Source: Desulfobacterales bacterium (lineage in GTDB: Bacteria; Desulfobacterota; Desulfobulbia; Desulfobulbales; BM004). From it: 64,000 nucleotides of DNA. The stretch lies in contig JAKITW010000003.1 in the NCBI GenBank assembly GCA_021647905.1, positions 3,503 to 67,502 of the forward strand, read 5' to 3'. The notes beneath the pieces are model-generated. The model saw only the letters and a program-made list of their open reading frames with translations, was not told where the DNA came from and made no database searches. Each line of letters starts with the position of its first letter. Within the stretch, counting starts at the first letter, position 1. The position numbers and the translations under genes are program-made. Below, piece after piece: positions 35,881-49,172 of the stretch.

Positions 35881-36612
35881 TCAGGATTTCTTTTTCTTGG
35901 CAGCGGCCTTTTTCCTGGCGGCGGCCTTCTTCTTGGCAGCCGGCTTTTTCTCTGTTTCTTTTTCCTGCCGGGCCGGCTTTTCGGCCTTTTTTTCCTGCCC
36001 CGCCGGGACCGGAGCAAAGGCCTTGGACAGAGACTTGGCCAGTTTTTCAGCAATCACCTCGCTGATATGCTCCCGGGTGAAATCTCCTTCCTTGCGCAAC
36101 CCCTTGGTGGCATTGGCAAAGACCATCCGCACCTTACGGTCGCTGACCACTGCCAGGGCCTTTTCCAGCCGGGCCGTCAATTCGGCCGGCTCGATCCCCT
36201 CGGACTCACCCAGCGGTCCCAGTTCCCTGGCAAGTTGCGTGAAATCGGTGATCAGCTTGACAAAGCGCGGCGCCTCGGCGGCCGAGGCCCACTGGAGCGA
36301 GAACCGTTCCGGGTTGATCCCGACTTCATTGAGCGCCATTCCCACCAGCGCATCCATTCCCATTGCATCGTAATTACCAACCTGGTAATGGCATTCACCA
36401 GGTTGTCAGCCACCGGCAAAGATGCCGGCCGCCCCGGCCAGGAACCCGCGCATCACAAAGGTGGGATCGATGCGGCCGGTGCACATCACCCGGATGGTCC
36501 GCAGGTTGGGAGGGTACTGGTAGCGGGATACCCCGGCCGCATCAGCGGCGGCGTAACAACACCAGTTACACAAGAAACCCAGAATCTTGGGATTATATTG
36601 TTCCTGACTCAT
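35881..36612 (-). CDS. mvhD: MvhD-like (methyl-viologen-reducing hydrogenase delta subunit family) selenoprotein with Lys/Ala-rich tail
   Basis: Track ORFs 36406-36750 and 35881-36363 are in the same frame, separated only by TGA 36408..36406. The read-through gives ...GAAGIFAGG-U-QPGECHYQVGNYDA..., aligning with the conserved GCHPGDCHY motif. Start at ATG 36612. Confidence 0.8.
36378..36405 (-). promoter_or_regulatory. SECIS-like hairpin immediately 3' of the mvhD UGA
   Basis: CAACCUGGU...ACCAGGUUG is a perfect 9-bp stem (36397-36405 / 36378-36386) starting right after UGA. An inner AAU/AUU extension is possible, leaving a bulged G. Confidence 0.65.
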
Positions 36613-36617
36613 AATAG

Positions 36618-39600
36618 TTATTCCTCGGTTGCCTCTTCTTTGATCCCGCCGAACGCCTCGATCTGCGAGACGATCTGCTCGTTGGTGAACCCGCCCATGG
36701 AGATGGCAAAGGTCGGACAATGGGAAGCGCAGATGCCGCACGCCTTGCATGAGGCAACAATGGTTTCCGCCTTTTTCTTCTTATCCTGCTTGACCATCCG
36801 GATGGCCTGGTAGGGACAGAGGGAGGCGCACAGGCTGCAGCCGATGCAGGTCTCCTTATCCACGTTGGAGACGATCGGATCCACTGAGACATACCCCCTG
36901 ACCATGGGGATGGCGGCCTTGGCCGCCGCGGCCTGGGCCTGGACGATGATCTCGTCAACCGGCTTGGGCGAATGGGCCAGGCCGGAGACATAGACGCCGG
37001 CAACCGGCAGTTCCACCGGCCGCAGCTTGACGTGCGCCTCCAGGTAGAACCGGTTCTGATTCACCGGCACCTTGAGCAGCTTGCTCAAATAGTCGGTGGA
37101 CTCGGGTACGATCCCGGTGGACAGCACCAGCATCTTCGGCTTCAGGTTCACCTCGTCCCGGAGAATCGGGTCAAAAAAGGAGACCTCGATCCTGTTGCCC
37201 TTCTGGGTAATGGCCGGTTTCCGGTCCAGGGTATAGGGTATGAAGAGAACCCCCTGCTCCCGGGCCTGCTGGTAGATATCCTCGTTATACCCGTAGGTCC
37301 GGATATCACGAAAGAGAACCACTACCTGAGACTTCGGGTTGATCTCCTTGATCTTGAGCGCATTTTTTACAGCGCTGCTACAGCAGATCTTGCTGCAGTA
37401 GCCCAGGCCGTCGCCCCGGGAGCCGGCGCACTGAACCATGACCACCGAATCCGGGGCCCGGTTCCTGCTCTTGCCGGCAAGGCTCTTTTCCAGTTCCTGC
37501 TGGGTGAGCACTGTTTTGGCGGAAAAATCAATGGGATTGTTGAGCACGGTTGCCGGCCGATGTTCCCTGCCGCCGGTGGCGATCAGGATCACCCCGTGAT
37601 CAATGGTATCCTCGACCGGGCCCTTTTTCTTCTCGCTCTTGATCACCGAGGAGAAGTTGCCGACAAACCCGCTGGTCTGCAGGAGTTCCGCCGAGGTGAA
37701 CAGATCGATTTTCTTGTTTTTCCTGACCTGACCGGCCAGCTTCTTGACATGGTCGAGATGCTGGAAAAAGCCGCCCAGCGAAGATTTTTTCTCTACCAGG
37801 AAACAATGAAAACCCTGGTCAGCCAGGTTGAGGGCCGCGGTCATCCCGGCCACCCCGCCGCCGACCACCAGCGCCCTGGAGGTCACCGGCACGGTCTGTT
37901 CGGGCAAGGGCTGGATCAACCGGGCCTTGGCAACCGCCATCCGCACCAGATCCTTGGACTTGTCAGTGGCCGCCTCGGGCTCGTTGGCATGGACCCAGGA
38001 ACATTGATCGCGGATATTTACCATTTCAAACAGCGAGCGGTTGAGCCCGGCATCCTTCAGGGTCTCCTGAAAGAGCGGCTCATGGGTCCGCGGCGAACAG
38101 GCGGCGATAACCACCCGGTTCAGCCGATGCTCCTTTATCTTCTCCTTGAGCACCTCCTGGGCGTCCTGGGAGCAGCTGTAAAGGCTTTCAGTGTAGTAGA
38201 CCACGTTTTCCATGTCCCCGGCATAGTTGCTTACCCCGGGCACATCGACAACGCTGCCGATATTGATCCCGCAATGGCAGACAAAGACCCCGATCCGCAC
38301 CTCTTCATCCAGGGGCTTTTCAGCGGGATAGCTCTTATGGATGATCCCCTTGCCCCGTTCCTTCTTTAAGAGCGAGGAAACCGCCCCGGCAACCCCGCTG
38401 GACTGGGTGACGCTCTCCGGAATATCCTTGGGGCCCTGGAAGGCGCCGGCAACAAAGACCCCCTTCCTGGAGGTGTCCAGCGGGCTGAAGGTATCAGTGG
38501 CGCAGAAATCGTATCCATTCAACTCAATCCCGCTGATCGCGGCCAGCTTGCCGGCATCGGCCGGCGAATCAAGGCCCACCGAAAGGACCACCATGTCATA
38601 GGGATCAAAGCGGTGACTGCCGTCCATGGTGGCATAGGTCAGCTGCAGGTGATCGCCCCATGGCATCACATCGGCGACCCGGGCCCGGACAAACTTGATC
38701 CCCTTGTCCTCGGCCCGCTGCTGGGCCGCGTCAAAGTCCTTGCCCTGGGTGCGGATATCCATGTAGTAGATGGTGATCTCCGCCTCGGGGTCATGCTCCT
38801 TGGCAACCATTGCCTCCTTGATCGCATACATGCAGCAGACCGAGGAGCAGTAGCCGTTGTCGCAGCCCAGATCCCGGGAGCCCACGCACTGGATAAAGGC
38901 GATCTTATGGGGATGGCGCTGGTCGGAAAGACAGCGGACCTCGCCTTGGAACGGGCCGGAGGGGTTGAGCAGCCGCTCGAACTCCAGGCTGGTGACCACG
39001 TCCGGATGTTTGCCGTAGCCATACTTGGCCAGGGCCTGGTCCGGAACCCGGCCGAAACCGGGCGAGAGCACCACCGCGCCGACCTCCAGGGCCCGTTCCT
39101 CGGGTTTCTGACTGAAATCAATGGCCTTGCTCTGGCAGACCGGCACACAGATCTGGCAGGTCTCATGCTGGAGATAGAGACAGCTGCGCGGATCAATGAA
39201 ATAGGTGGCTGGCACCGCCTGGGGATAGTCGATATGGATCGGCCGGGTAATGGCCAGTCCCTCGTTGTACTCGTCGACCTGGTGCCGGGGACAGTAGGTG
39301 GTGCACAGGCCGCAGGCCGTACAGTCGTCCGCATTGATGTAACGGGGATTGATCCGGACGTTGGCGGTGAATTTACCGGGCCTTCCATCCAGTGAAAGAA
39401 ACTCGGCGTTTGTAAGAATCTCGATATTTGGAGACCGACCGGCCTCGACCAACTTGGGCGCCAGGATTCAGAGCGAACAGTCGTTGGTCGGGAAGGTCTT
39501 GTCCAGTTGAGCCATCACCCCGCCAATGGCAGCGGATTTTTCCACCAGATAGACATAGTATCCCAGGTCGGTCAGATCAAGAGCCGCCTGGAGACCGGCG

Positions 39601-39656
39601 ATACCGCCGCCGACCACCATCACGGATCCGGCTCTGCTCTTCTTTACTTCAGCCAT
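36618..39656 (-). CDS. hdrA: Heterodisulfide reductase subunit A-like flavoprotein (1012 aa) selenoprotein
   Basis: Track ORFs 39468-39656 and 36618-39452 are in the same frame. TGA 39470..39468 gives [30 protein letters not shown], matching the conserved DCSMCILxPK motif. Two GxGxxG FAD folds and several 4Fe-4S CxxCxxCxxxCP motifs are present. Confidence 0.8.
39431..39446 (-). promoter_or_regulatory. Candidate SECIS apical hairpin for the hdrA UGA
   Basis: GAGGCC-GGUC-GGUCUC, a 6-bp stem with a GGUC loop as in E. coli fdhF SECIS. The stem starts 21 nt after the UGA and the loop 27 nt after it. Confidence 0.45.
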
Positions 39657-39769: not shown

Positions 39770-41125
39770 TTAAGAGGCCGGCTTCCACTCCTTGAGGTAT
39801 GCGGGCAGATGTCCGGCCTCGCGCGGGCCGATGGTAATGGTCCACTCGGGCAGTTCCTCCTCGATCTCGCCCTTGATGGTGGCCAGATACCCGGGGATGA
39901 TCAGGTCGCGATGCTTGACCTTGTCCTCAATGCCGCTCTTCTTGAGGAACTGGGCGATGAGGTCGGCGCCGAACTTGCCGGCGGCCCAGGCGGTGAGCAC
40001 CGACAGCCCCTCGGTATCCTTGATCAGCAGCCAGGAAGGCACCTTGCTGCCCTCGATCTCGCCGGAGACGATGAAGTAGGTGAGCGAGAAGTTGCAGGTG
40101 ACCAGCACCGGCGAGTTCTCGTCCGGACCGTTGATCGGATAGATATCCTCTTTCACCACCATCGGCCGCTGCGGATCAGTGAACAGGTTGAGCCGTTCCA
40201 GGAAGAGCGGAAAGAGGGTGTCGCCCTGGAGATCGGACAGGATAATCATCCCGGCGTACTTGGCGATCAGCACCGAGGAGATCATCGCCTCCATCAGCGG
40301 GTCGTCGGTCATCTCGCCGGGAAAGACGATGGTCGGAAAGCCGAGCGGCTTGAATTTTTTGGTAACCGCGGCGCGGCGGGCCACAATGTTGTCCTCGAAT
40401 GCGGCATGCATGGTCCGGGCCCCGGTATCAATGACCAGGTCCTTGAGACCGGCCTTGATCAAGCTCTCGGACAGGGTCACCGCGTCGTCAAGGTCAACGC
40501 CCTTGACCGCCAGCGGGCAGCCGGCCTCCCTGGCCATCCCGGCCATGGCATCGGCATTACCGGCAGTGGCCCCGTACAGGAGCGGCTTGCGGTCGCCGCA
40601 GAGCCTGGCCCCCTCGGCCAGGGTCTCGGGGTTGTCGCTCATCAGCACCAGGGTGGCGTCGGCCGCGGTGTCCAGGACCTTCTTGACCAATCCGCTAAAG
40701 GCGGCTCCATCACCGTCAGCATCCTTGACCGCGATGATATCGGCCTTCATCAATACCCCGACCCGCTCATAGCGCAGGCTGTTAAAGCGCTCGATCCGGC
40801 CGTCCACATCCTGGCCGGCCATCCCGGTGGTGACCAGCACCCCGATGCCGGTGGGATTTTCGAACCGCCGGTCATGCCGGTACATGCAGGTCTCGCCGCC
40901 GGCGGTGAAAGCGGCATCCCCTGCCCCGAGCTTGATGGTGCGGATCGGCGGCGCCGAGGCCTCGCCAATGGTCTCCTTGGCCTCATCGCTCACATACGGA
41001 CATACGCCGATTTCCATCTGCCCGGCCGCCACCTTCATTCCAAAGGCCAGACAGGTCGGTATCCCGCATTCCCCGCAGTTGGTCTTGGGGAGCATTTTCA
41101 GGATTTGAATACCAGTTAAAGCCAT
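39770..41125 (-). CDS. acsC: Corrinoid iron-sulfur protein large subunit (AcsC/CdhE)
   Basis: N-terminal 4Fe-4S motif KTNCGECGIPTCLAF with a second CPY, followed by TIM-barrel and corrinoid-binding regions. Confidence 0.85.
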   Translation of the reverse strand: MALTGIQILKMLPKTNCGECGIPTCLAFGMKVAAGQMEIGVCPYVSDEAKETIGEASAPPIRTIKLGAGDAAFTAGGETCMYRHDRRFENPTGIGVLVTTGMAGQDVDGRIERFNSLRYERVGVLMKADIIAVKDADGDGAAFSGLVKKVLDTAADATLVLMSDNPETLAEGARLCGDRKPLLYGATAGNADAMAGMAREAGCPLAVKGVDLDDAVTLSESLIKAGLKDLVIDTGARTMHAAFEDNIVARRAAVTKKFKPLGFPTIVFPGEMTDDPLMEAMISSVLIAKYAGMIILSDLQGDTLFPLFLERLNLFTDPQRPMVVKEDIYPINGPDENSPVLVTCNFSLTYFIVSGEIEGSKVPSWLLIKDTEGLSVLTAWAAGKFGADLIAQFLKKSGIEDKVKHRDLIIPGYLATIKGEIEEELPEWTITIGPREAGHLPAYLKEWKPAS

Positions 41126-41182: not shown

Positions 41183-43393
41183 TTACACCGCCGCTTCCAT
41201 CTCCAGGGCCGGGTGCCCCTTTTCCTTCAGGAACTTGAGGATCTCCTCCTCGGTCTCACCCTGCTCTTCAGTGGCGATCATTTCATACAGTTCAGGCATC
41301 CCCTCTTCCTTGCACCGCGCGATGAGCTTGTCCTTGATCTCTTCCTTGAGCATCTTGGGCAGCCAGACCAGCCGTTTGAGCCCGCCCTCGGCCTTGAGGA
41401 ACTTGCGGCTGGTGAGGAAATGCTTGCTGACCCCCATGAAACCGGGGGTCTGGGCCCCGCCGCCGGCCATGCCGGCCAGGGTGGTGAACTTCATCCCGCT
41501 GGGGGTCATGCCCCGGTAATCGCGGTTAACGATCATCACCCCGTTGCACTGGGGCAGCATCGCGGCAATGGCCTCGAAACAGCCGCAGGCGGTCATCGGG
41601 TTGGTCATCAGTGAATAGCAGGCCACCTCGGGCACCGCGCCGCGGGAGGCCTGGTTGACAAAATCATTGATCCCCTTGAAGTTGCCCAGGTTGTTGTCAA
41701 GGCACTCGCCCTTTTCAATGGGCTGGTTGGGGCCGGTGGGGTTGATCTGATAGGAGGCCTTGCCGTCCAGCCAGTTGTAGGCCCCGCACATGCCCACCCG
41801 CTCCGGGGTGATCACGCAGACATGGCTGGGGGCGAAAGACTGGCACAGGGTACAGGAGTAGAAAATCTCCTCGGTCTCGTCGGTCATGGTGCCCAGCCGT
41901 TCGTCGCGCTCGGCATATACCGTGCGGGCCACTTCCTGGACCTTTTCCACCTGGTCGGGCTCGGTATAGATCTTGACCTGGATCTTGTCGAGGATCGCGC
42001 CGAACTCCTGGTGGAGCTTGCCGTGCAGCACCTTGCCGATGTGGGCAAGCGAAAAACCCTTCTCCACCGCGGCCTTGCCGATCCGGAGCCACATGATGTT
42101 CCGCTGGCCCATGTGCATGATGCCCTGGATGTAGTTGATCAGGTGATGGAACTGCCGCTCGAGGATGGGCTCGAAGTCGGACTGCATCTCCCGGCCGGCC
42201 ACCTCGACCAGGATGGCCAACGGCAGGTTGTGGCCCTGTTCGATATCCTTGATGTCCGGACCCTCGACAATGACCAGGCCGTCCTCGACATCGCCCATGT
42301 CCTTGGAGACGAGCACCTCGACCGCCGGGGTCCGGCCGCCGCCGCACTCCATGAACAGATCGTCCTTGCGCACCCGCTCGCCCTCAAAGGCCGGACCGAA
42401 AGACATGGGGATGTCGATCTTGGTGATCGAGACCTTGAGACCGCGCACCTCAATGGCCTTCTGGACGAACTCCTCGTGGGGTACGTTGCTGACCACGTGC
42501 TCGTAAGTACAGATACCAGTGGGCAGCACCTCGGGGATGTCGTAATCAGAGATGGTGGGAAAGCCCCAGTTGATGGCGCCGGCGGCATTGGCGTACCACT
42601 CGTCGGAAACCGGTCCGAAGGCCATCACAAAGGCAAAGGTCCGGTCCTTGTTGTAGATCAGGTTGCCCCGGTAGTCGCCGGGCTTGATCCCGCCGAAGGC
42701 CATGGCCACCCGGCAGGCGAAACCAATGGCAAAGACCGCCGAGGTGTAGCTCCGGCCAAAGGGCACCAGCCGGGTGTTCCAGCCGACCTGGACCTTGTTG
42801 TCGACGAGCTGCTCGGGCATGCTCTTCCCAGAGGCGTGATCATGGTCATGCATGAAGATATAGAGGTTCTTCTCCTGCAGTTCCAGGGCGATCTTGCTGG
42901 CGATCTCCTTGTCGGGCGGCGCACCCATGATCGCGGCAAACCCGGGGGCCGTGCCGTCAACAAACTCCACCCCCCGCTTACGGAAGATGATATCGTCGGC
43001 CGCGCCCAGCCAGATATTGTCCGCAGTGGGATCCTCGGTCTTGGTGTAGAAATCAGGCTCGTTCAAATAGCGGACCGCCTCATACATCTCTTCGGCAAAA
43101 AAGGTGGCCATGCCCGCATCCAGGGCCGAGGCCAGGTAGGGCAGCCAGATCTCATCGCTGACCATCTCCGGCAGAAGCTTGCGGCATTCCTGGAAGATAT
43201 CCTTCATATCCCCCAGCTTTTCCACCTTGGCGCCCAGCATTGAATAAATGACCGGCAGGAAATAGGCGGTGTTGGGGAAGGCGACCTCTTGTTCAGGACC
43301 GTGTTTCTTCAGCGCTTCTTCATACTTTTCCTCGGCCATGTCCACAATCTTGTGGGCACCTCGAATAGCGGCTGAACAGATAATTTTTGACAT
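41183..43393 (-). CDS. acsB: Acetyl-CoA synthase catalytic subunit (AcsB/CdhC)
   Basis: 736 aa, bacterial-type. A-cluster motifs include CTLCQSFAPSHVC and ACGCFE. Confidence 0.9.
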   Translation of the reverse strand: MSKIICSAAIRGAHKIVDMAEEKYEEALKKHGPEQEVAFPNTAYFLPVIYSMLGAKVEKLGDMKDIFQECRKLLPEMVSDEIWLPYLASALDAGMATFFAEEMYEAVRYLNEPDFYTKTEDPTADNIWLGAADDIIFRKRGVEFVDGTAPGFAAIMGAPPDKEIASKIALELQEKNLYIFMHDHDHASGKSMPEQLVDNKVQVGWNTRLVPFGRSYTSAVFAIGFACRVAMAFGGIKPGDYRGNLIYNKDRTFAFVMAFGPVSDEWYANAAGAINWGFPTISDYDIPEVLPTGICTYEHVVSNVPHEEFVQKAIEVRGLKVSITKIDIPMSFGPAFEGERVRKDDLFMECGGGRTPAVEVLVSKDMGDVEDGLVIVEGPDIKDIEQGHNLPLAILVEVAGREMQSDFEPILERQFHHLINYIQGIMHMGQRNIMWLRIGKAAVEKGFSLAHIGKVLHGKLHQEFGAILDKIQVKIYTEPDQVEKVQEVARTVYAERDERLGTMTDETEEIFYSCTLCQSFAPSHVCVITPERVGMCGAYNWLDGKASYQINPTGPNQPIEKGECLDNNLGNFKGINDFVNQASRGAVPEVACYSLMTNPMTACGCFEAIAAMLPQCNGVMIVNRDYRGMTPSGMKFTTLAGMAGGGAQTPGFMGVSKHFLTSRKFLKAEGGLKRLVWLPKMLKEEIKDKLIARCKEEGMPELYEMIATEEQGETEEEILKFLKEKGHPALEMEAAV

Positions 43394-43456: not shown

Positions 43457-46132
43457 TCAGCCGATCAGGCCGTTGACCAGCGACTTGGTCAGGGCGATGG
43501 CCCTGGGATGCCGCATGATCAATACCTCGCCGCCGGACAGCAGCATACAGGAAGCGGTAATCGCCTCCATCAGCACGCCGCGCTGCTCCTGATCACCCAG
43601 GAGCGGGTCCGAGGGCAGCCGGCATTCCTTGGCCTTCCAGACCTCGCGGCCCAGGTTACAGATGATCGGCACCTGCAGTTTCTCGTCCTGCTGGGTCAGG
43701 GCGGCCAACCGGATCCGCTCCATAACCGAATAGGTGTACTCAATGCCGTAGCCCAGGGCCCCGACAGAGGGGTCGATGAGTACCGAATCAAGCGACACCC
43801 CGAGATTCTCCAGCAGGATGTTGAGCTGCTTGGCCAGGTTGACGTCAATGGGAGAGGCGGCGACCATGGGATACTGGAAGGCCATGGCCGTGGCGCCGAT
43901 GGAGCGGTAATTGGCATCGGAGAGCGGCGCCAGGCAGACCTTCTTGCTGCCGATCATTGCGGTGACCTCCCGCAGGGTCTCGGTATCCTTGTCAGCGTTG
44001 CCGCAGCCCCAGAGGATGATCGGCACATCGATGTTATTGATCACCTCGGCCGCGGTCTTGGCCGCATCGGCCGATGACCGGTTCAGGCCGTTGGGGTCGG
44101 TGGAGACCAGGGAGAGACAGATCGCCTCGGCCTGGTACTCCTTGACACATTTCCGGGCCCAGTCCACCGGGCTGTCAAGCACGTCGGCAAAATGGCGGGT
44201 CAGGGTCCCGGGCCATTCTTCCGGCTTGATATCAGGAACATCCATGGCAATGAGCGGCTTGTTCGGCATCTCGCCTTCAAAGAGCTGAAAGGGCATGGAG
44301 TCGGCCCCGCCGACCTGAACGGTGTTGTCGTCGCTGCCCAGGGTGACCTGGCGGATGGAGCCGCTGTATCGGGTCCGGTAGGTGTCAACCGGAACCTTGG
44401 TCGATCGATCGGCCAGGGGTGTCGGCTCACCGGCCAGCGCGGCAACCCCGAAATCAGCGGCAGCGGCCGGGGCGGCGGCGGGCTTGGCCTCGGCAGTCTT
44501 TTCAGCCTCCTCAACGGCCTTGGCCGCAGCCTCTTTTTTCGCCTCTGCCGCGGCTTTTGCTTCCGCCGCCTTCCTAGCCTCCTCAGCGGCCTTGGCCTGT
44601 TCGGCAGCCTTGGCCGCGGCGGCCTTTTTGGCCTCTTCGGCAGCCTTGGCTTGTGCGGCGGCTTTTACTTCAGCAGCCTTCTTGGCTTCCTCGGCAGCCT
44701 TGGTCCTGGCTTCATCTGCCGCGCTATCCACGGCCGGTGCCGCCGGTGCTGCTGGTGCTGCCGGAGTTACCGGTGCTGCCGGTGCTGCCGGGGCTGCCGG
44801 GGCTGCCGGAGTTACCGGGGCTGCCGGCTCTTTCCGCAAGATGGCTTCGGCCCCGGCAAAATTGGTCAGGGCCTCGAATTGATCATCGCTTAATCCAAGG
44901 GATCTCTTCAGTAATTCAAGACCACGCTGAACAGACTCCAACGCCATCCGGCGTTCTCTTTCATTCATCTCATCTTCTCCTGCTTCCGCAATTTCCATCA
45001 ATTCCTGATCAACCGGGGCCGCGGTCCGCGCCTGCGGCCTGCCCGCTTCCTCCCTGGCCGCGGCAATTATCTTTTCAGCCTCTGCCCTGGCCGCGGCAAG
45101 AACATCATCGGCCGCCTTCTTGTCGACCGGGGCCCTGCTGACCTCGATTGCCGCCGGGGCCGCAACCAGGGCCGCGGCCGGCTCATCATCAAATACCGGC
45201 CTGGGGCCGAGACTGGCCCGGCTGACGATCTCGGGCACCGCGCTTTCCCACTCAATGGCCATGATATGGACCCCGGCCACCCCCTTGATCTCACGAACCT
45301 GGTTGATAACATCAACACAGATGTTGATGCCCTCGTCCTCCTTGTCCGCGGCTCCCCGCATCCGCTCGATCACCTCGCCGGTGACATCCATGCCGGGCAC
45401 GAATTTTTTCATATACCGGGCCATGCCCAGGGAACGGGGCGGGGTGACCCCGGCCAGGATGGAGACCTTTTCATCAATGCCCAGGTCGCGGACCATTTCC
45501 ATGAACCTGGCGAACTTCTCCACGTTATAGATGATCTGGGTCTGGACGAAATCAGCGCCATTAGCCGCCTTTTTCCCCAGCCGCGGGGCCCGGTAGGCAA
45601 AGGGCTCGGCAAAGGGGTTGGCCGCGCAGCCCAGAAAGAGCCGCGGCTTTTCACCCTTGATCTCCTCGCCGCACTGGAACCGGCCCTCGTCGCGCAGCGA
45701 CCTCATCATGCCGAGCATCTGGATGGAGTCCATGTCAAAGACCCCCTTGGCTCCCGGATGGTTGCCGAACTTCTGATGATCACCGGTCAGGCAGAGCAGG
45801 TTCTTCAACCCCAGGGCCGCGGCGCCCAGGATATCGCTCTGCATCCCGATCCGGTTCCGGTCGCGACAGGTCATCTGGATGACCGGCTCCACCCCCTCGG
45901 ACTGGACGATCAGGCCGGCGGCAATACTGGACATCCGGACAATGGCGGTCTGGCAGTCGGTGATATTAACCGCGTCCACATGGCCCTTCAACAACCGGGC
46001 CTTGTTGCGCACCACCTCGGGGTCGCTGTTCTTGGGCGGCCCCAGCTCACCGGTTACCGCAAAATCTCCCGCAGTTAAGATACGCTCTAATCGACTCGCC
46101 GATTTCATCGGTAATCTATCCTTGTCTTCCAT
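43457..46132 (-). CDS. Fusion of methylene-tetrahydrofolate reductase (MetF, acetogen type) and the corrinoid Fe-S protein small subunit (AcsD/CdhD)
   Basis: Residues about 1-310 are MetF-like (VTGELGPP..., NITDCQTA, QTQIIYN). Residues about 320-560 form an Ala/Pro/Lys/Glu low-complexity linker. Residues about 570-891 are AcsD-like (VTLGSD..VQVGG...PIILWGCG...GIEYTYSVMERIR). The frame is uninterrupted. Confidence 0.75.
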   Translation of the reverse strand: MEDKDRLPMKSASRLERILTAGDFAVTGELGPPKNSDPEVVRNKARLLKGHVDAVNITDCQTAIVRMSSIAAGLIVQSEGVEPVIQMTCRDRNRIGMQSDILGAAALGLKNLLCLTGDHQKFGNHPGAKGVFDMDSIQMLGMMRSLRDEGRFQCGEEIKGEKPRLFLGCAANPFAEPFAYRAPRLGKKAANGADFVQTQIIYNVEKFARFMEMVRDLGIDEKVSILAGVTPPRSLGMARYMKKFVPGMDVTGEVIERMRGAADKEDEGINICVDVINQVREIKGVAGVHIMAIEWESAVPEIVSRASLGPRPVFDDEPAAALVAAPAAIEVSRAPVDKKAADDVLAAARAEAEKIIAAAREEAGRPQARTAAPVDQELMEIAEAGEDEMNERERRMALESVQRGLELLKRSLGLSDDQFEALTNFAGAEAILRKEPAAPVTPAAPAAPAAPAAPVTPAAPAAPAAPAVDSAADEARTKAAEEAKKAAEVKAAAQAKAAEEAKKAAAAKAAEQAKAAEEARKAAEAKAAAEAKKEAAAKAVEEAEKTAEAKPAAAPAAAADFGVAALAGEPTPLADRSTKVPVDTYRTRYSGSIRQVTLGSDDNTVQVGGADSMPFQLFEGEMPNKPLIAMDVPDIKPEEWPGTLTRHFADVLDSPVDWARKCVKEYQAEAICLSLVSTDPNGLNRSSADAAKTAAEVINNIDVPIILWGCGNADKDTETLREVTAMIGSKKVCLAPLSDANYRSIGATAMAFQYPMVAASPIDVNLAKQLNILLENLGVSLDSVLIDPSVGALGYGIEYTYSVMERIRLAALTQQDEKLQVPIICNLGREVWKAKECRLPSDPLLGDQEQRGVLMEAITASCMLLSGGEVLIMRHPRAIALTKSLVNGLIG
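44462..44832 (-). repeat. In-frame low-complexity tandem repeats encoding the MetF-AcsD linker
   Basis: Encodes (PAA)n-type runs PAAPVTPAAPAAPAAPAAPVTPAAPAAPAAPA and (KAAEEA)-type runs KAAEEAKKAAEVKAAAQAKAAEEAKKAAAAKAAEQAKAAEEARKAAEAKAAAEAKKEAAAKA. Confidence 0.8.
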
Positions 46133-46186: not shown

Positions 46187-48190
46187 TCATGGTTGCGACG
46201 ACTGGGCCGGACCGGTGCAACCGGCGTCGCCAAGACCGGTGGAGCCGAGATCCCTCCGCATGGCCATGTCGAACAGGACCCGCTCGGTCTTCTTGTTGAT
46301 GCCCAGCGCATCCCGTTTCGCCTCGATCTTGGCGATCATGGTCCTGGCGATCTCCACCGGGTCCTCGACCACGTTCCAGTGAGCCCCGTAAACGCCCATC
46401 AGGTCTTCAAGCAGATACTTGTTAAAGACCTTGGCCCCGGAGGTGGGCAGGCTCTGAAAAATTACCTGGGCCCCGCTGGCGACAAAGTACTGGCCGATGG
46501 CCACCGCCTTTTCACTCATCCACAGGGGCGCGGTGCCGATGGCGGGCAGGTCGGAGATGTCATCGCCCAGGCCGCCCTCGCGGACCATCTCGGTGGCTGC
46601 GATCAGGATCCGGCTGTTGTCCACGCAGGAACCCATGTGCAGCACCGGCGGCATGCCCACGGTTTCGCAGATCTCGGCCAGGCCCTTGCCGCAGAACTCC
46701 GCTGCCTCGGGCCGGAGCAGCCCGGCCTTGCCCAGGGAGGTTGCCGCGCAACCAGTGGCCAGCACCAGGACATTGTTTTTGATCAACTCCCGGGCAATGA
46801 CCTCGTGGGAATCATCGGCCAGCTTGAAGTTGTCGCAGCCGACGATTATGCCGACGCCGCGGATCCGGCCGTTGATGATGTTGTCGTTCAAGGGCCGGTA
46901 GCTGGCCCGGAACCGGCCGCCCAGGATGTAGTTAATGGTCTCATGGCTGAAACCGACCACCACGTCTGTCTTTTCTTTTTCCGGAATATAAAATGCGTCC
47001 CGTTTCTTGTAATTGGCAATGGCGTGTCTGAGGATCCGCTTGGCTGATTCGAGCGGCTCATGTTCCTCGAACTGGATGTGAATCCCGCCCGGCATCTTGG
47101 CCCGGTAGTTGGTGGTGATGATGTCGGTATGGAAGTTTCCAGCCACCTCGGCCACCGACTGCATGACACACTGGACATCGACCACCATGGCCTCGATGGC
47201 GCCGGTGGCCAGGACCATTTCCTGCTGGACGAACCCGGCCGCCACCGGGATGCCGCGCCGCATCAGGATCTCGTTGCCGGTGCAGCAGACCCCGGCCAGG
47301 TTGATCCCCTTGGCGCCGGCCTTCTTGGCCAGGCCGAGGATCTCCTGGTCAGAGGCGGCAATACAGAGGGCCTCGGCCAGCAACGGCTCATGGCCGTGTA
47401 CGGTAATATTGACCTGGTCCGGTTTAAGCACGCCCATATCGACTATCGCCCGGATCGGCACCGGGGTGCCGAACATGATGTCAGTGAGTTCAGTGGAAAG
47501 CATCGAGGCCCCCCAGCCGTCGGCCAGGGAACAGCGGGAGGCCTGGAGCAGGATGTTCTCATAGTCCTGATCCACGCCCATGTGGGTGCGGTGCATGGTC
47601 TCCACCACCTCACGGTCGATACCGCGGGGCTCAACACCAAGTTTCTTCCAGATGGCCTGGCGCTTGGCCGGGGCCCGCTTCAACATGGACAGCGGCGTGT
47701 TTTCCTGGTTGCCGAATTCAGCCAGGGCCTTTTGCCCCAGTTCCAGGGCAATATCCTTGACCTCCCGGTCCTCGGTCTTGATATCAAAGGTCTTGGCCAG
47801 CCTGATCAGCTTGTCCACGTCCTTGATCCGGTGCGGCCCTTCCCCGTTGGCGGTATCAATGAAACCCCGGACCATTTCCCGGGCATGATCGGTATGGGCC
47901 GCGGTGCCGGCGGCCACGATCCGGGCGAAATTCCGGGCCGCCACGGTATCAGCGGTGGCGCCGCAGACCCCGATCATCGATTCAACGCCGTCGATGATCT
48001 GGCAGGGTCCCATATTGCAGTGCCGGCAACAGGTGCCGCCGGCGCCGAACAGGCAGGTAGCCATGCCCCGGGCCTTGATCCGGTCATAGGCGGTCTTGAC
48101 GTTTTTGGCCACATCCTGGGACAACACCGCCTTGGTGGAAACACAGGTGATGTCTGTACAGCCTTCGCACTCACTTCTCTTGATTGCCAT
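46187..48190 (-). CDS. cooS: Anaerobic carbon-monoxide dehydrogenase catalytic subunit
   Basis: CCRHCNMGPC and CGATADT motifs with later cluster-C ligand motifs. Start at ATG 48190 after GAGGTG. Confidence 0.9.
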   Translation of the reverse strand: MAIKRSECEGCTDITCVSTKAVLSQDVAKNVKTAYDRIKARGMATCLFGAGGTCCRHCNMGPCQIIDGVESMIGVCGATADTVAARNFARIVAAGTAAHTDHAREMVRGFIDTANGEGPHRIKDVDKLIRLAKTFDIKTEDREVKDIALELGQKALAEFGNQENTPLSMLKRAPAKRQAIWKKLGVEPRGIDREVVETMHRTHMGVDQDYENILLQASRCSLADGWGASMLSTELTDIMFGTPVPIRAIVDMGVLKPDQVNITVHGHEPLLAEALCIAASDQEILGLAKKAGAKGINLAGVCCTGNEILMRRGIPVAAGFVQQEMVLATGAIEAMVVDVQCVMQSVAEVAGNFHTDIITTNYRAKMPGGIHIQFEEHEPLESAKRILRHAIANYKKRDAFYIPEKEKTDVVVGFSHETINYILGGRFRASYRPLNDNIINGRIRGVGIIVGCDNFKLADDSHEVIARELIKNNVLVLATGCAATSLGKAGLLRPEAAEFCGKGLAEICETVGMPPVLHMGSCVDNSRILIAATEMVREGGLGDDISDLPAIGTAPLWMSEKAVAIGQYFVASGAQVIFQSLPTSGAKVFNKYLLEDLMGVYGAHWNVVEDPVEIARTMIAKIEAKRDALGINKKTERVLFDMAMRRDLGSTGLGDAGCTGPAQSSQP

Positions 48191-48284
48191 TATTTCACCT
48201 CGTTCAAACAAGAATCAAATGCCGACACCCGGTTGTCGTCCTGTTACCGGACAGGTTCGGCATGGTCCGGCCCTGCCGGCCGGG

Positions 48285-49172
48285 TTAAACAAGTCCAGCG
48301 GCCTGCCTGGCGGCCTGGACCGTGTTTTTCATCAGCATGGTAATGGTCATCGGCCCGACACCGCCGGGAACCGGGGTGATGGCCGCGGCCTTTTCCTTGA
48401 CCCCCTCAAAATCCACGTCACCGGCCAGGATGGCCTTGCCGGACTCGCTCTTGCCGATCCGGTTGACCCCCACATCGATGATCACCACCCCCTCCTTGAC
48501 CATGTCGGCGGTAACCATCTTGGCAACCCCCACCGCGGCGATGATGATATCGGCCCGCCGGGTGTGGGCGGCCATATCCCTGGTCCGGGTGTGACAGAGG
48601 GTGATGGTGGCGTTGCCGGATTCACGCTTCTGGAGCATCAGGTTGGCAATCGGCTTGCCCACGATGTTGCTCCGGCCGAGGATCACCACCTCGGCGCCGC
48701 TGGTCTCAACGCCGCTCCGCTTGAGCAGTTCGAGGATGCCGTGGGGGGTGCAGGGCAGGAAGCATTGTTCGCCCAGGACCATCTTGCCGACATTGACCGG
48801 ATGGAAGCCGTCCACATCCTTGTCCGGGTCAATGGCAAAGAGCACCTTGGCCTCGTTGATATGCTTGGGCAGCGGCAACTGGACCAGGATGCCGTTGATC
48901 TTGCCGTCCTTGTTGTACTTGTCGACAACGGCGAGCAGGTCCTCCTCGCTGGTATCAGCCGGCAGGGTGATCTGCTCGGAATGAATCCCCAGGGCATGGG
49001 CGGTCTTGTTCTTGGCGGAAACATAGGACTGGGAGGCCGGATCCTCGCCGACCAGGATGGTTACCAGCCCGGGGGTGATATTATGTTTTTCAATAAGTTC
49101 GGCAACCTCGACTTTCAATTCCTCGCGAATGGCCCTGGCCGTCTCGGTGCCGCTGATGATCTTGGCGGTCAT
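48285..49172 (-). CDS. folD: Bifunctional methylene-THF dehydrogenase/methenyl-THF cyclohydrolase
   Basis: ILVGEDPASQSYV, GILVQLPLP, GRSNIVGKP and TPVPGGVGPMT motifs. Confidence 0.9.
   Translation of the reverse strand: MTAKIISGTETARAIREELKVEVAELIEKHNITPGLVTILVGEDPASQSYVSAKNKTAHALGIHSEQITLPADTSEEDLLAVVDKYNKDGKINGILVQLPLPKHINEAKVLFAIDPDKDVDGFHPVNVGKMVLGEQCFLPCTPHGILELLKRSGVETSGAEVVILGRSNIVGKPIANLMLQKRESGNATITLCHTRTRDMAAHTRRADIIIAAVGVAKMVTADMVKEGVVIIDVGVNRIGKSESGKAILAGDVDFEGVKEKAAAITPVPGGVGPMTITMLMKNTVQAARQAAGLV

Follow-up and report, generated by a model that had tools for sequence, protein, structure and literature searches.

A 64,000-nucleotide stretch of a Desulfobacterales bacterium genome (hereafter, the window) contains on the - strand, at 43457..46132, a single open reading frame (ORF) in which a methylenetetrahydrofolate reductase (MTHFR; MetF) is joined to the small subunit of the corrinoid iron-sulfur protein (CFeSP; AcsD/CdhD). 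The frame of this metF~acsD gene runs from ATG to stop over 891 codons with no internal stop or frameshift, as the original prediction had it, and a profile search of the product, which the prediction had proposed as a check, detects both families with full-length domains. Pfam places MTHFR at residues 14-306 (E 6e-37) and CdhD at residues 595-834 (E 1e-42), the latter match being extended to residues 582-890 by the AcsD/CdhD subfamily model NF003376 of NCBIfam. Between the MTHFR and AcsD domains lie about 275 residues. The gene is part of a tightly spaced - strand operon, folD-acsA-[metF~acsD]-acsB-acsC-hdrA-mvhD, and has at least 120 two-domain homologues. The fusion is confirmed as real, and the identities of its domains and its authenticity are near certain.

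The true start of the protein may be Met9 (46108) rather than the first ATG (46132). Both ATG codons are preceded by a plausible ribosome-binding site; the invariant alignment columns begin at Met9 (MKS…) and the 8-residue N-terminal extension before it is absent in about half of the homologues. The AlphaFold model of the whole protein has a mean predicted local distance difference test (pLDDT) score of 70. Exact-sequence look-ups with the window protein and with its Desulfurivibrio alkaliphilus counterpart returned no database record. ORFs on the + strand that overlap the repeats described below were rejected as by-products of the GC-rich repeats.

The MetF domain (residues 14-306; 45215..46093, - strand) covers positions 1-286 of the 287 of Pfam PF02219 (127.9 bits versus a cut-off of 24), and its best NCBIfam match is the YitJ-type MTHFR NF006396 (E 3e-65). 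Foldseek relates this TIM barrel to the Thermus thermophilus MTHFR with template-modelling (TM) scores of 0.77-0.79 and a probability of 1.0, the range being 0.70-0.79 when the T. thermophilus and Escherichia coli enzymes are taken together. Alignment to the T. thermophilus enzyme pairs Glu29 with Glu18 and the TGD118 motif with RGD109; Thermus Glu18 and Asp109 are catalytic and correspond to E. coli Glu28 and Asp120 (PMC3156243). Glu29, Asp118 and a TQ motif are invariant among 61 fusion homologues. Stand-alone proteins 57-73% identical to residues 9-312 are found in many phyla, namely Chloroflexota, Actinomycetota, Planctomycetota (anammox), Acidobacteriota, Spirochaetota and many Desulfobacterota, and in 62 loci (within L017-L080) metV lies directly upstream of metF, itself usually preceded by mvhD and by a gene for an HdrA-like protein of 950-1650 residues; these unfused orthologues bear out the earlier assignment of the domain to the acetogen type of MetF. 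Since the catalytic residues are conserved and orthologous stand-alone MetF proteins exist, the N-terminal domain is predicted to be an orthodox, catalytically intact MetF. The hdrA(L)-mvhD-metV-metF module is that of the Hdr/MvhD-linked methylenetetrahydrofolate reductase of acetogens, and in Moorella orthologous MetF proteins work with HdrA/MvhD-type electron carriers. A MetFV-HdrABC-MvhD methylenetetrahydrofolate reductase is mentioned in PMC10553843.

The C-terminal AcsD domain (residues 582-890; 43463..44389, - strand), also a TIM barrel, was likewise correctly recognized. It matches NF003376 above its cut-off (371 bits versus 280) over model positions 3-312 of 313, and Pfam CdhD with 146.7 bits versus a cut-off of 24.8. 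With NF040759 (‘WLP_AcsD’) it scores 300.5 bits, short of the cut-off of 430, and is best assigned, on these profile scores, to the broader delta-subunit family rather than to the narrowly trained NF040759 model. Solved CFeSP small subunits agree with it both in sequence, the C-terminal 310 residues matching 4DJD_D, 2H9A_B and 4C1N_B in phmmer searches (E about 1e-80, 40-42% identity), and in fold, Foldseek giving TM scores of 0.82-0.87 against 4DJD_D (0.82), 2H9A_B (0.87), 2YCL_B and 9FZY_E.

The region between the two domains had been described as an Ala/Pro/Lys/Glu linker of roughly 240 residues. The composition holds (34.5% Ala, 12.6% Glu, 8.3% Pro and 7.9% Lys), while the length is that given above, and the spacer is indeed in part built of repeats but is not a plain low-complexity tether, about 90 of its residues being conserved, non-repetitive, helical sequence with invariant positions. 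Its elements follow each other in the order conserved helix, conserved helical module, Pro/Ala tract and Ala/Glu/Lys helix. The first, defined by the conservation profile (residues 338-363; 45044..45121, - strand), is a helix in the AlphaFold model with a pLDDT of about 75, and its core at 346-360, AAARAEAEKIIAAAR, shows 80% identity over 121 sequences. The second, the helical module (…EMNERERRMALESVQRGLELLKRSLGLSDDQFEALTNFAGAEAIL…; residues 376-435; 44828..45007, - strand), has a column identity of 56-71% in the same alignment, with residues G385, M389, N390, E391, E393, R394, A397, L398, G404, L405, L408, Q418, A421, F425 and L432 invariant and with modelled helices at 386-411 and 416-426; its core (…LGLSD[DE]xFEAL…AE.IL) is recognizable in P0121, a fusion of the Dissulfuribacterales type. 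The module matched no Pfam family in scans of the full protein or of the isolated spacer, the latter returning only sub-threshold stalk-helix families, e.g. HrpE/FliH. The only Pfam resemblance of the conserved helix is to the stalk helices of ATP-synthase b and FliH, also below threshold (ATP-synt_B against the isolated spacer, 18.7 bits versus a cut-off of 28). Membership of such a stalk-helix family was rejected, the matches being treated as compositional. An origin of the spacer as a remnant of MetV is also unlikely, the gene order in the Dissulfuribacterales locus L017 being metV-metF~acsD and P0121 also carrying the module.

The remainder of the spacer consists of the PAAPAAP and KAAEEAKKAA tracts that had been read as products of 9- and 18-nucleotide tandem repeats, a reading with which Tandem Repeats Finder agrees. 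The Pro/Ala tract (PAAPVTPAAPAAPAAP…; residues 436-470; 44723..44827, - strand) corresponds to a 9-nucleotide array of 10.6 copies (44733-44827) and is modelled without secondary structure (434-476, pLDDT below 50); an equivalent tract, different in sequence, is present in all homologues. The Ala/Glu/Lys-rich tract (KAAEEAKKAAE…; residues 471-551; 44480..44722, - strand) contains 18-nucleotide and 54-nucleotide (2.6 copies) arrays at 44568-44708 and is modelled as one long helix at 475-518, its composition and approximate length being kept in all homologues. The expectation that the linker would vary in length was partly borne out. Among homologues the whole spacer measures 216-286 residues, in a comparison of proteins that are only 70-80% identical (the nearest homologue being about 79% identical), but its repeat-built part is tightly bounded, with a median of 143 residues, a standard deviation of 7.2 and a range of 101-161 in 77 sequences. 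The order of this part is also constant: a Pro/Ala tract, an (AEEAKKAAEAKA)n-like tract, a second Pro/Ala tract and a conserved lead-in to AcsD. Because these bounds are narrow despite the turnover of sequence, they argue for selection on the physical length of the spacer rather than free expansion and contraction. From standard geometry, the Pro/Ala rod and the helix could together span roughly 15-25 nm.

The same domain order, for which a search in other Desulfobacterota had been suggested, was found in at least 120 protein clusters and in 17 collinear loci. A search of 5.8 billion proteins (E ≤ 1e-10) gave 673 matches, clustered at 90% identity, the best 120 of which are all 830-918 residues long, carry both PF02219 and PF03599 and belong to Desulfobulbaceae and Desulfurivibrionaceae. 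One cultured species, D. alkaliphilus, encodes the fusion (P0092, 893 residues) on a finished chromosome of 3.10 Mb. In a survey of one genome per species, 16 Desulfobulbales loci (L001-L016) share the order folD-acsA-fusion-acsB-acsC-…-hdrA, and a further locus examined independently from precomputed Pfam calls (L083) repeats the gene order of the window without exception, split hdrA and mvhD included. The fusion gene is frameshifted inside its MetF domain, and not in the repeats, in three of these loci, all from metagenome-assembled genomes (MAGs): L002 (1-2634), L008 (7604-10157) and L011 (2438-5069); errors of assembly or pseudogenization probably account for this.

Fusions of a more divergent kind were also found, one of 1011 residues in a Dissulfuribacterales MAG (L017) and one of 815 residues in a Thermodesulfatator MAG (L018). 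The first is related to P0121, a 50%-identity representative of 1038 residues with TPR repeats in its spacer, and the second is represented by P0122 (845 residues). The closest unfused relative for both domains is a Desulfobacterales MAG (L019), in which metF (330 residues) and acsD (323 residues) are adjacent but separate. Neighbour-joining analysis with 200 bootstraps groups the fused AcsD domains in a single clade in 94.5% of replicates. The fusion most likely goes back to one event, in which neighbouring metF and acsD genes were joined in an ancestor of Desulfobulbia, Dissulfuribacteria and Thermodesulfobacteria; a single origin is the most economical reading, and it is the AcsD tree that supports it well.

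The operon opens with folD (48285..49172, -; Pfam THF_DHG_CYH and its C-terminal domain), followed by acsA/cooS for carbon monoxide dehydrogenase (CODH; 46187..48211, -; Pfam Prismane, E 1.5e-157), which lies 54 nucleotides upstream of the fusion gene. Downstream, after 63 nucleotides, comes acsB for acetyl-CoA synthase (ACS; 41183..43393, -; CODH_A_N, CdhC and ACS_CODH_B_C), and then acsC for the large CFeSP subunit (39770..41125, -; FeS and CdhD). The last two genes encode an HdrA-like flavoprotein (36618..39656, -; Pyr_redox_2 and Fer4) and an MvhD-like protein (35881..36612, -). Both contain an in-frame TGA, at 39468-39470 and at 36406-36408 (in GG*QPGECHY), respectively, which read-through translation places at conserved Cys positions, and both products are probably selenoproteins. 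Owing to the in-frame TGA codons, lists of ORFs show the two genes split; the same split is seen in L001-L014 and in L083, where both halves of the mvhD equivalent match FlpD of Pfam. At its C-terminus the MvhD-like protein carries a strongly basic tail rich in Lys and Ala (window 35881-36020; …KKPAAKKKAAARKKAAAKKKKS), a second low-complexity appendage in the operon.

In two of the related loci (L001, 16403-20650; L017, 17790-21926) a GltD-like/molybdopterin formate dehydrogenase is encoded downstream of acsC, split by an in-frame stop that probably encodes selenocysteine; the same gene is suggested for many other Desulfobulbales loci by a gap of about 4.4 kb at the equivalent position. In the window and in L083 there is no formate dehydrogenase gene at this place, hdrA following acsC directly. 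Unrelated to the fusion, an ORF at 506-1441 of the window (- strand) contains a DruA (Druantia anti-phage defence) domain (E 1e-34).

Two genes that might be expected in this setting are missing from it. No acsE, coding for the methyltransferase (Pterin_bind), was found between the two domains or in the operon by Pfam annotation, nor in a six-frame search of the 64-kb window, so that the original statement that none lies between MetF and AcsD stands; a parallel search detected no metV (DUF5981) at E ≤ 0.01, the queries in both cases being the clustered acsE and metV of L017. Nor is acsE present within 10 kb in the 17 related Desulfobulbales loci. The gene does occur elsewhere in this lineage: D. 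alkaliphilus encodes, at 2.31 Mb and about 7.5 kb away from the gene for RACo, the corrinoid reductive activase, an orthologue 71% identical to the clustered AcsE of L017, and further orthologues are found in D. dismutans and in Desulfobulbaceae MAGs. The D. alkaliphilus region (L081, CP001940.1, 2,300,903-2,317,793), in which acsE also lies near a DUF3786/FeS protein gene, suggests a second, separate corrinoid-handling locus. As acsE in D. alkaliphilus lies outside the cluster but elsewhere on the chromosome, AcsE is predicted to act in trans. The fused lineage represented by L017 has acsE directly after acsC, a layout that fits the T. dismutans genome paper, in which MTHFR is TDIS_1006 and the methyltransferase TDIS_1009, the fusion being unmentioned.

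MetV is the usual electron-entry partner of acetogen-type MetF. Among the best 120 of 8000 matches in a search for MetV homologues (down to 61% identity) no Desulfobulbales names appeared, and in the genome of a Desulfobulbus epibiont metV was reported absent and two copies of metF present (PMC7117923). The MetF considered here may function without MetV.

The reading that we consider probable, with some reserve, is that the fusion is a covalent tether between MetF and AcsD that holds MetF, probably together with HdrA-MvhD, on the CFeSP/CODH-ACS assembly. The AcsD domain would pair with AcsC into a CFeSP, as in the solved proteins, and the spacer would keep MetF no more than a few tens of nanometres away from it, at a fixed 1:1 stoichiometry. 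Through the usual partners of MetF, the tether would also bring the low-potential HdrA-MvhD electron module beside CODH/ACS, a suggestion drawn from the hdrA and mvhD genes that both accompany the MetF orthologues and close the present operon; the methyl and carbonyl branches of the pathway would in this way be linked in one assembly. Transfer of the methyl group from methyl-tetrahydrofolate (CH3-THF) to cobalt would still require AcsE in trans. The helical module, set between flexible segments, probably docks on another subunit, by analogy with the peripheral-subunit-binding domain (PSBD) of the 2-oxo-acid dehydrogenase E2 components. For tethering and docking as functions, taken by themselves, the odds seem to us about balanced.

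Several points weigh against this reading. A full-length, uncleaved product and its assembly with HdrA/MvhD or ACS are predicted from the genes. CH3-THF is a small molecule that diffuses freely, and on its own a 20-30 nm tether cannot channel it. The docking role is an analogy, the helical module being modelled with modest confidence (pLDDT 65-75) and matching no Pfam family. The gene for MetV is absent from all 17 Desulfobulbales loci (L001-L016 and L083), and the fused MetF domains, although one clade in the neighbour-joining point tree, are recovered as such in only 21% of bootstraps, so that the MetF tree gives a single origin weak support.

The architecture might also be a neutral ‘Rosetta-stone’ fusion through loss of a stop codon, the two moieties working as separate proteins would and the spacer being tolerated filler subject to repeat slippage. 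In favour of it are the adjacent metF and acsD of the unfused L019, the tandem DNA repeats that encode the spacer, the low-complexity sequence that differs among homologues and the variety of partners to which AcsD is joined in other lineages. It does not sit well with the retention of the fusion in three groups (Desulfobulbales, Dissulfuribacterales and Thermodesulfatator), with the invariant residues in some 90 positions of the spacer, or with a repeat-built part that keeps its order (Pro/Ala, Ala/Glu/Lys, Pro/Ala), composition and length (standard deviation 7 residues). As this conservation and retention point to purifying selection on the spacer, we regard neutrality as unlikely, although it is the likeliest of the alternatives. 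Much further down the scale is mis-assembly, in which the repetitive DNA of the spacer would have caused two genes to be joined or a stop or frameshift to be hidden; the continuous two-domain ORF recurs in at least 120 independently assembled clusters, the finished D. alkaliphilus chromosome included, and the fusion in 17 genome loci, and the frameshifts of the three MAG loci sit in the MetF domain, outside the repeats. Repeat-driven mis-assembly is excluded as a general explanation, and the chance that an artefact of assembly or annotation lies behind the gene is negligible.

A third possibility is that the MTHFR-like domain is a module that binds methyl-THF and replaces AcsE, handing the methyl group directly to the corrinoid of CFeSP. 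The missing acsE (in the operon, in the window and within 10 kb in the related loci) invites the idea, and MTHFR is a TIM barrel that binds CH3-THF, but neither the catalytic Glu and Asp nor the flavin-site motifs vary, and stand-alone MetF proteins whose genes accompany metV, mvhD and hdrA share 57-73% identity with the domain. Moreover, acsE follows acsC immediately in the fused lineages L017 and T. dismutans, and the conserved acsE of D. alkaliphilus, close to the RACo gene, disfavours replacement further, making it very improbable. Tethering of an orthodox MetF to CFeSP remains the preferred explanation.

Appendages of AcsD are not confined to this fusion. When AcsD proteins with a complete domain were clustered at 50% identity, 21 of the 41 representatives carried extensions of at least 60 residues, with tails of 95-451 residues made up of as much as 71% Ala, Pro, Glu and Lys, and AcsD is fused to AcsB in P0221 (1209 residues) and to AcsA in P0143 (1122 residues); P0129, P0139, P0207 and P0239 are further tethered examples. 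Among the linkers and tails that were inspected, several have one amphipathic helix with Pro/Ala-rich segments on either side. MetF~AcsD belongs to a ‘tethered AcsD’ design that recurs. A bolder and rather doubtful extension is that AcsD is a general tethering hub of a Wood-Ljungdahl super-assembly, in which long Pro/Ala and Ala/Glu/Lys spacers with short, conserved ‘sticker’ helices link it covalently to MetF or, in other lineages, to AcsB or AcsA, or end as free tails, and which in Desulfobulbales would place a MetV-independent module of MetF with selenocysteine-containing HdrA and MvhD on CODH/ACS-CFeSP. If this were true, reducing power, methyl-group synthesis and acetyl-CoA assembly would come together in one particle, on a principle like that of E2-cored dehydrogenase complexes or of the linker-protein scaffolds of carboxysomes.

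Depictions of the Wood-Ljungdahl pathway usually show soluble enzymes among which methyl-THF and ferredoxin move freely. A conserved covalent link between MetF and the corrinoid protein is genomic evidence for a physical organization of its methyl and carbonyl branches, in hosts that are sulfur-disproportionating and sulfide-oxidizing Desulfobulbales, one cultured species included, so that the tethering hypothesis is testable in D. alkaliphilus. It also draws attention to a possible MetV-independent MetF and to a spacer design that recurs on AcsD. On the practical side, pathway surveys that score metF and acsD separately will miss or double-count the gene, which NCBI names either ‘acetyl-CoA decarbonylase/synthase complex subunit delta’ or ‘methylenetetrahydrofolate reductase’ and which genome papers already list under one name or the other. 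The original prediction knew of no description of the fusion. No statement of it was found in a search confined to open-access papers and preprints, and a description may exist elsewhere; it is mentioned neither in a 2026 study of Wood-Ljungdahl evolution in Desulfobacterota nor in the genome papers of fused lineages, and a literature search on cable bacteria gave no match. The fusion is not rare, with hundreds of database entries, which lowers its novelty as had been foreseen: its parts are familiar and its architecture can be seen in databases, the fusion itself being seemingly undescribed.

A close counterpart is the MetFV-HdrABC-MvhD complex of Moorella thermoacetica, the type III MTHFR of acetogens. 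Its MetF is of the same family, and hdrA-like and mvhD-like genes close the operon of the window. It differs in that the MetF of the window is covalently joined to AcsD, that metV was not found in the window or in the related loci and no hdrB or hdrC was seen, and that HdrA and MvhD of the window appear to be selenoproteins. With the AcsC/AcsD/AcsE system (4DJD, 2H9A/2YCL and, for CODH/ACS-CFeSP, 9FZY) the window shares a full-length match to the small subunit and the neighbouring acsC, acsB and acsA genes. The solved AcsD proteins, unlike the domain described here, which is preceded by 580 residues, have 307-323 residues and no N-terminal extension, and acsE is not clustered in the present case.

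Fusion of an enzyme that makes CH3-THF to one that uses its methyl group is also known from the YitJ-type homocysteine S-methyltransferase/MTHFR (NF006396) and is found in P0181. This last protein, of 1681 residues, unites MetV and MetF with an entire cobalamin-dependent methionine synthase (S-methyl_trans, Pterin_bind, B12-binding and activation domains). In both, the partner is a methyltransferase and the domains are closely apposed, whereas in the window the partner is a structural subunit of CFeSP and a long structured spacer intervenes. The other AcsD fusions and tails have different partners, in several cases bear the tether on the opposite side of AcsD, and contain embedded helices without clear sequence homology to the module of the window; like the present protein, they attach a long Pro/Ala/Glu/Lys tether with an embedded amphipathic helix to the AcsD barrel. 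Purely architectural is the comparison with the E2 components of 2-oxo-acid dehydrogenases, in which Ala/Pro-rich linkers serve as swinging arms and are combined with a PSBD. The spacer has no homology to them, no lipoyl domain and no carried cofactor, and no E3_binding or lipoyl domain of Pfam matched it even at E ≤ 5; what the two have in common, by analogy, are extended Ala/Pro segments around a small helical element in a multi-enzyme assembly.

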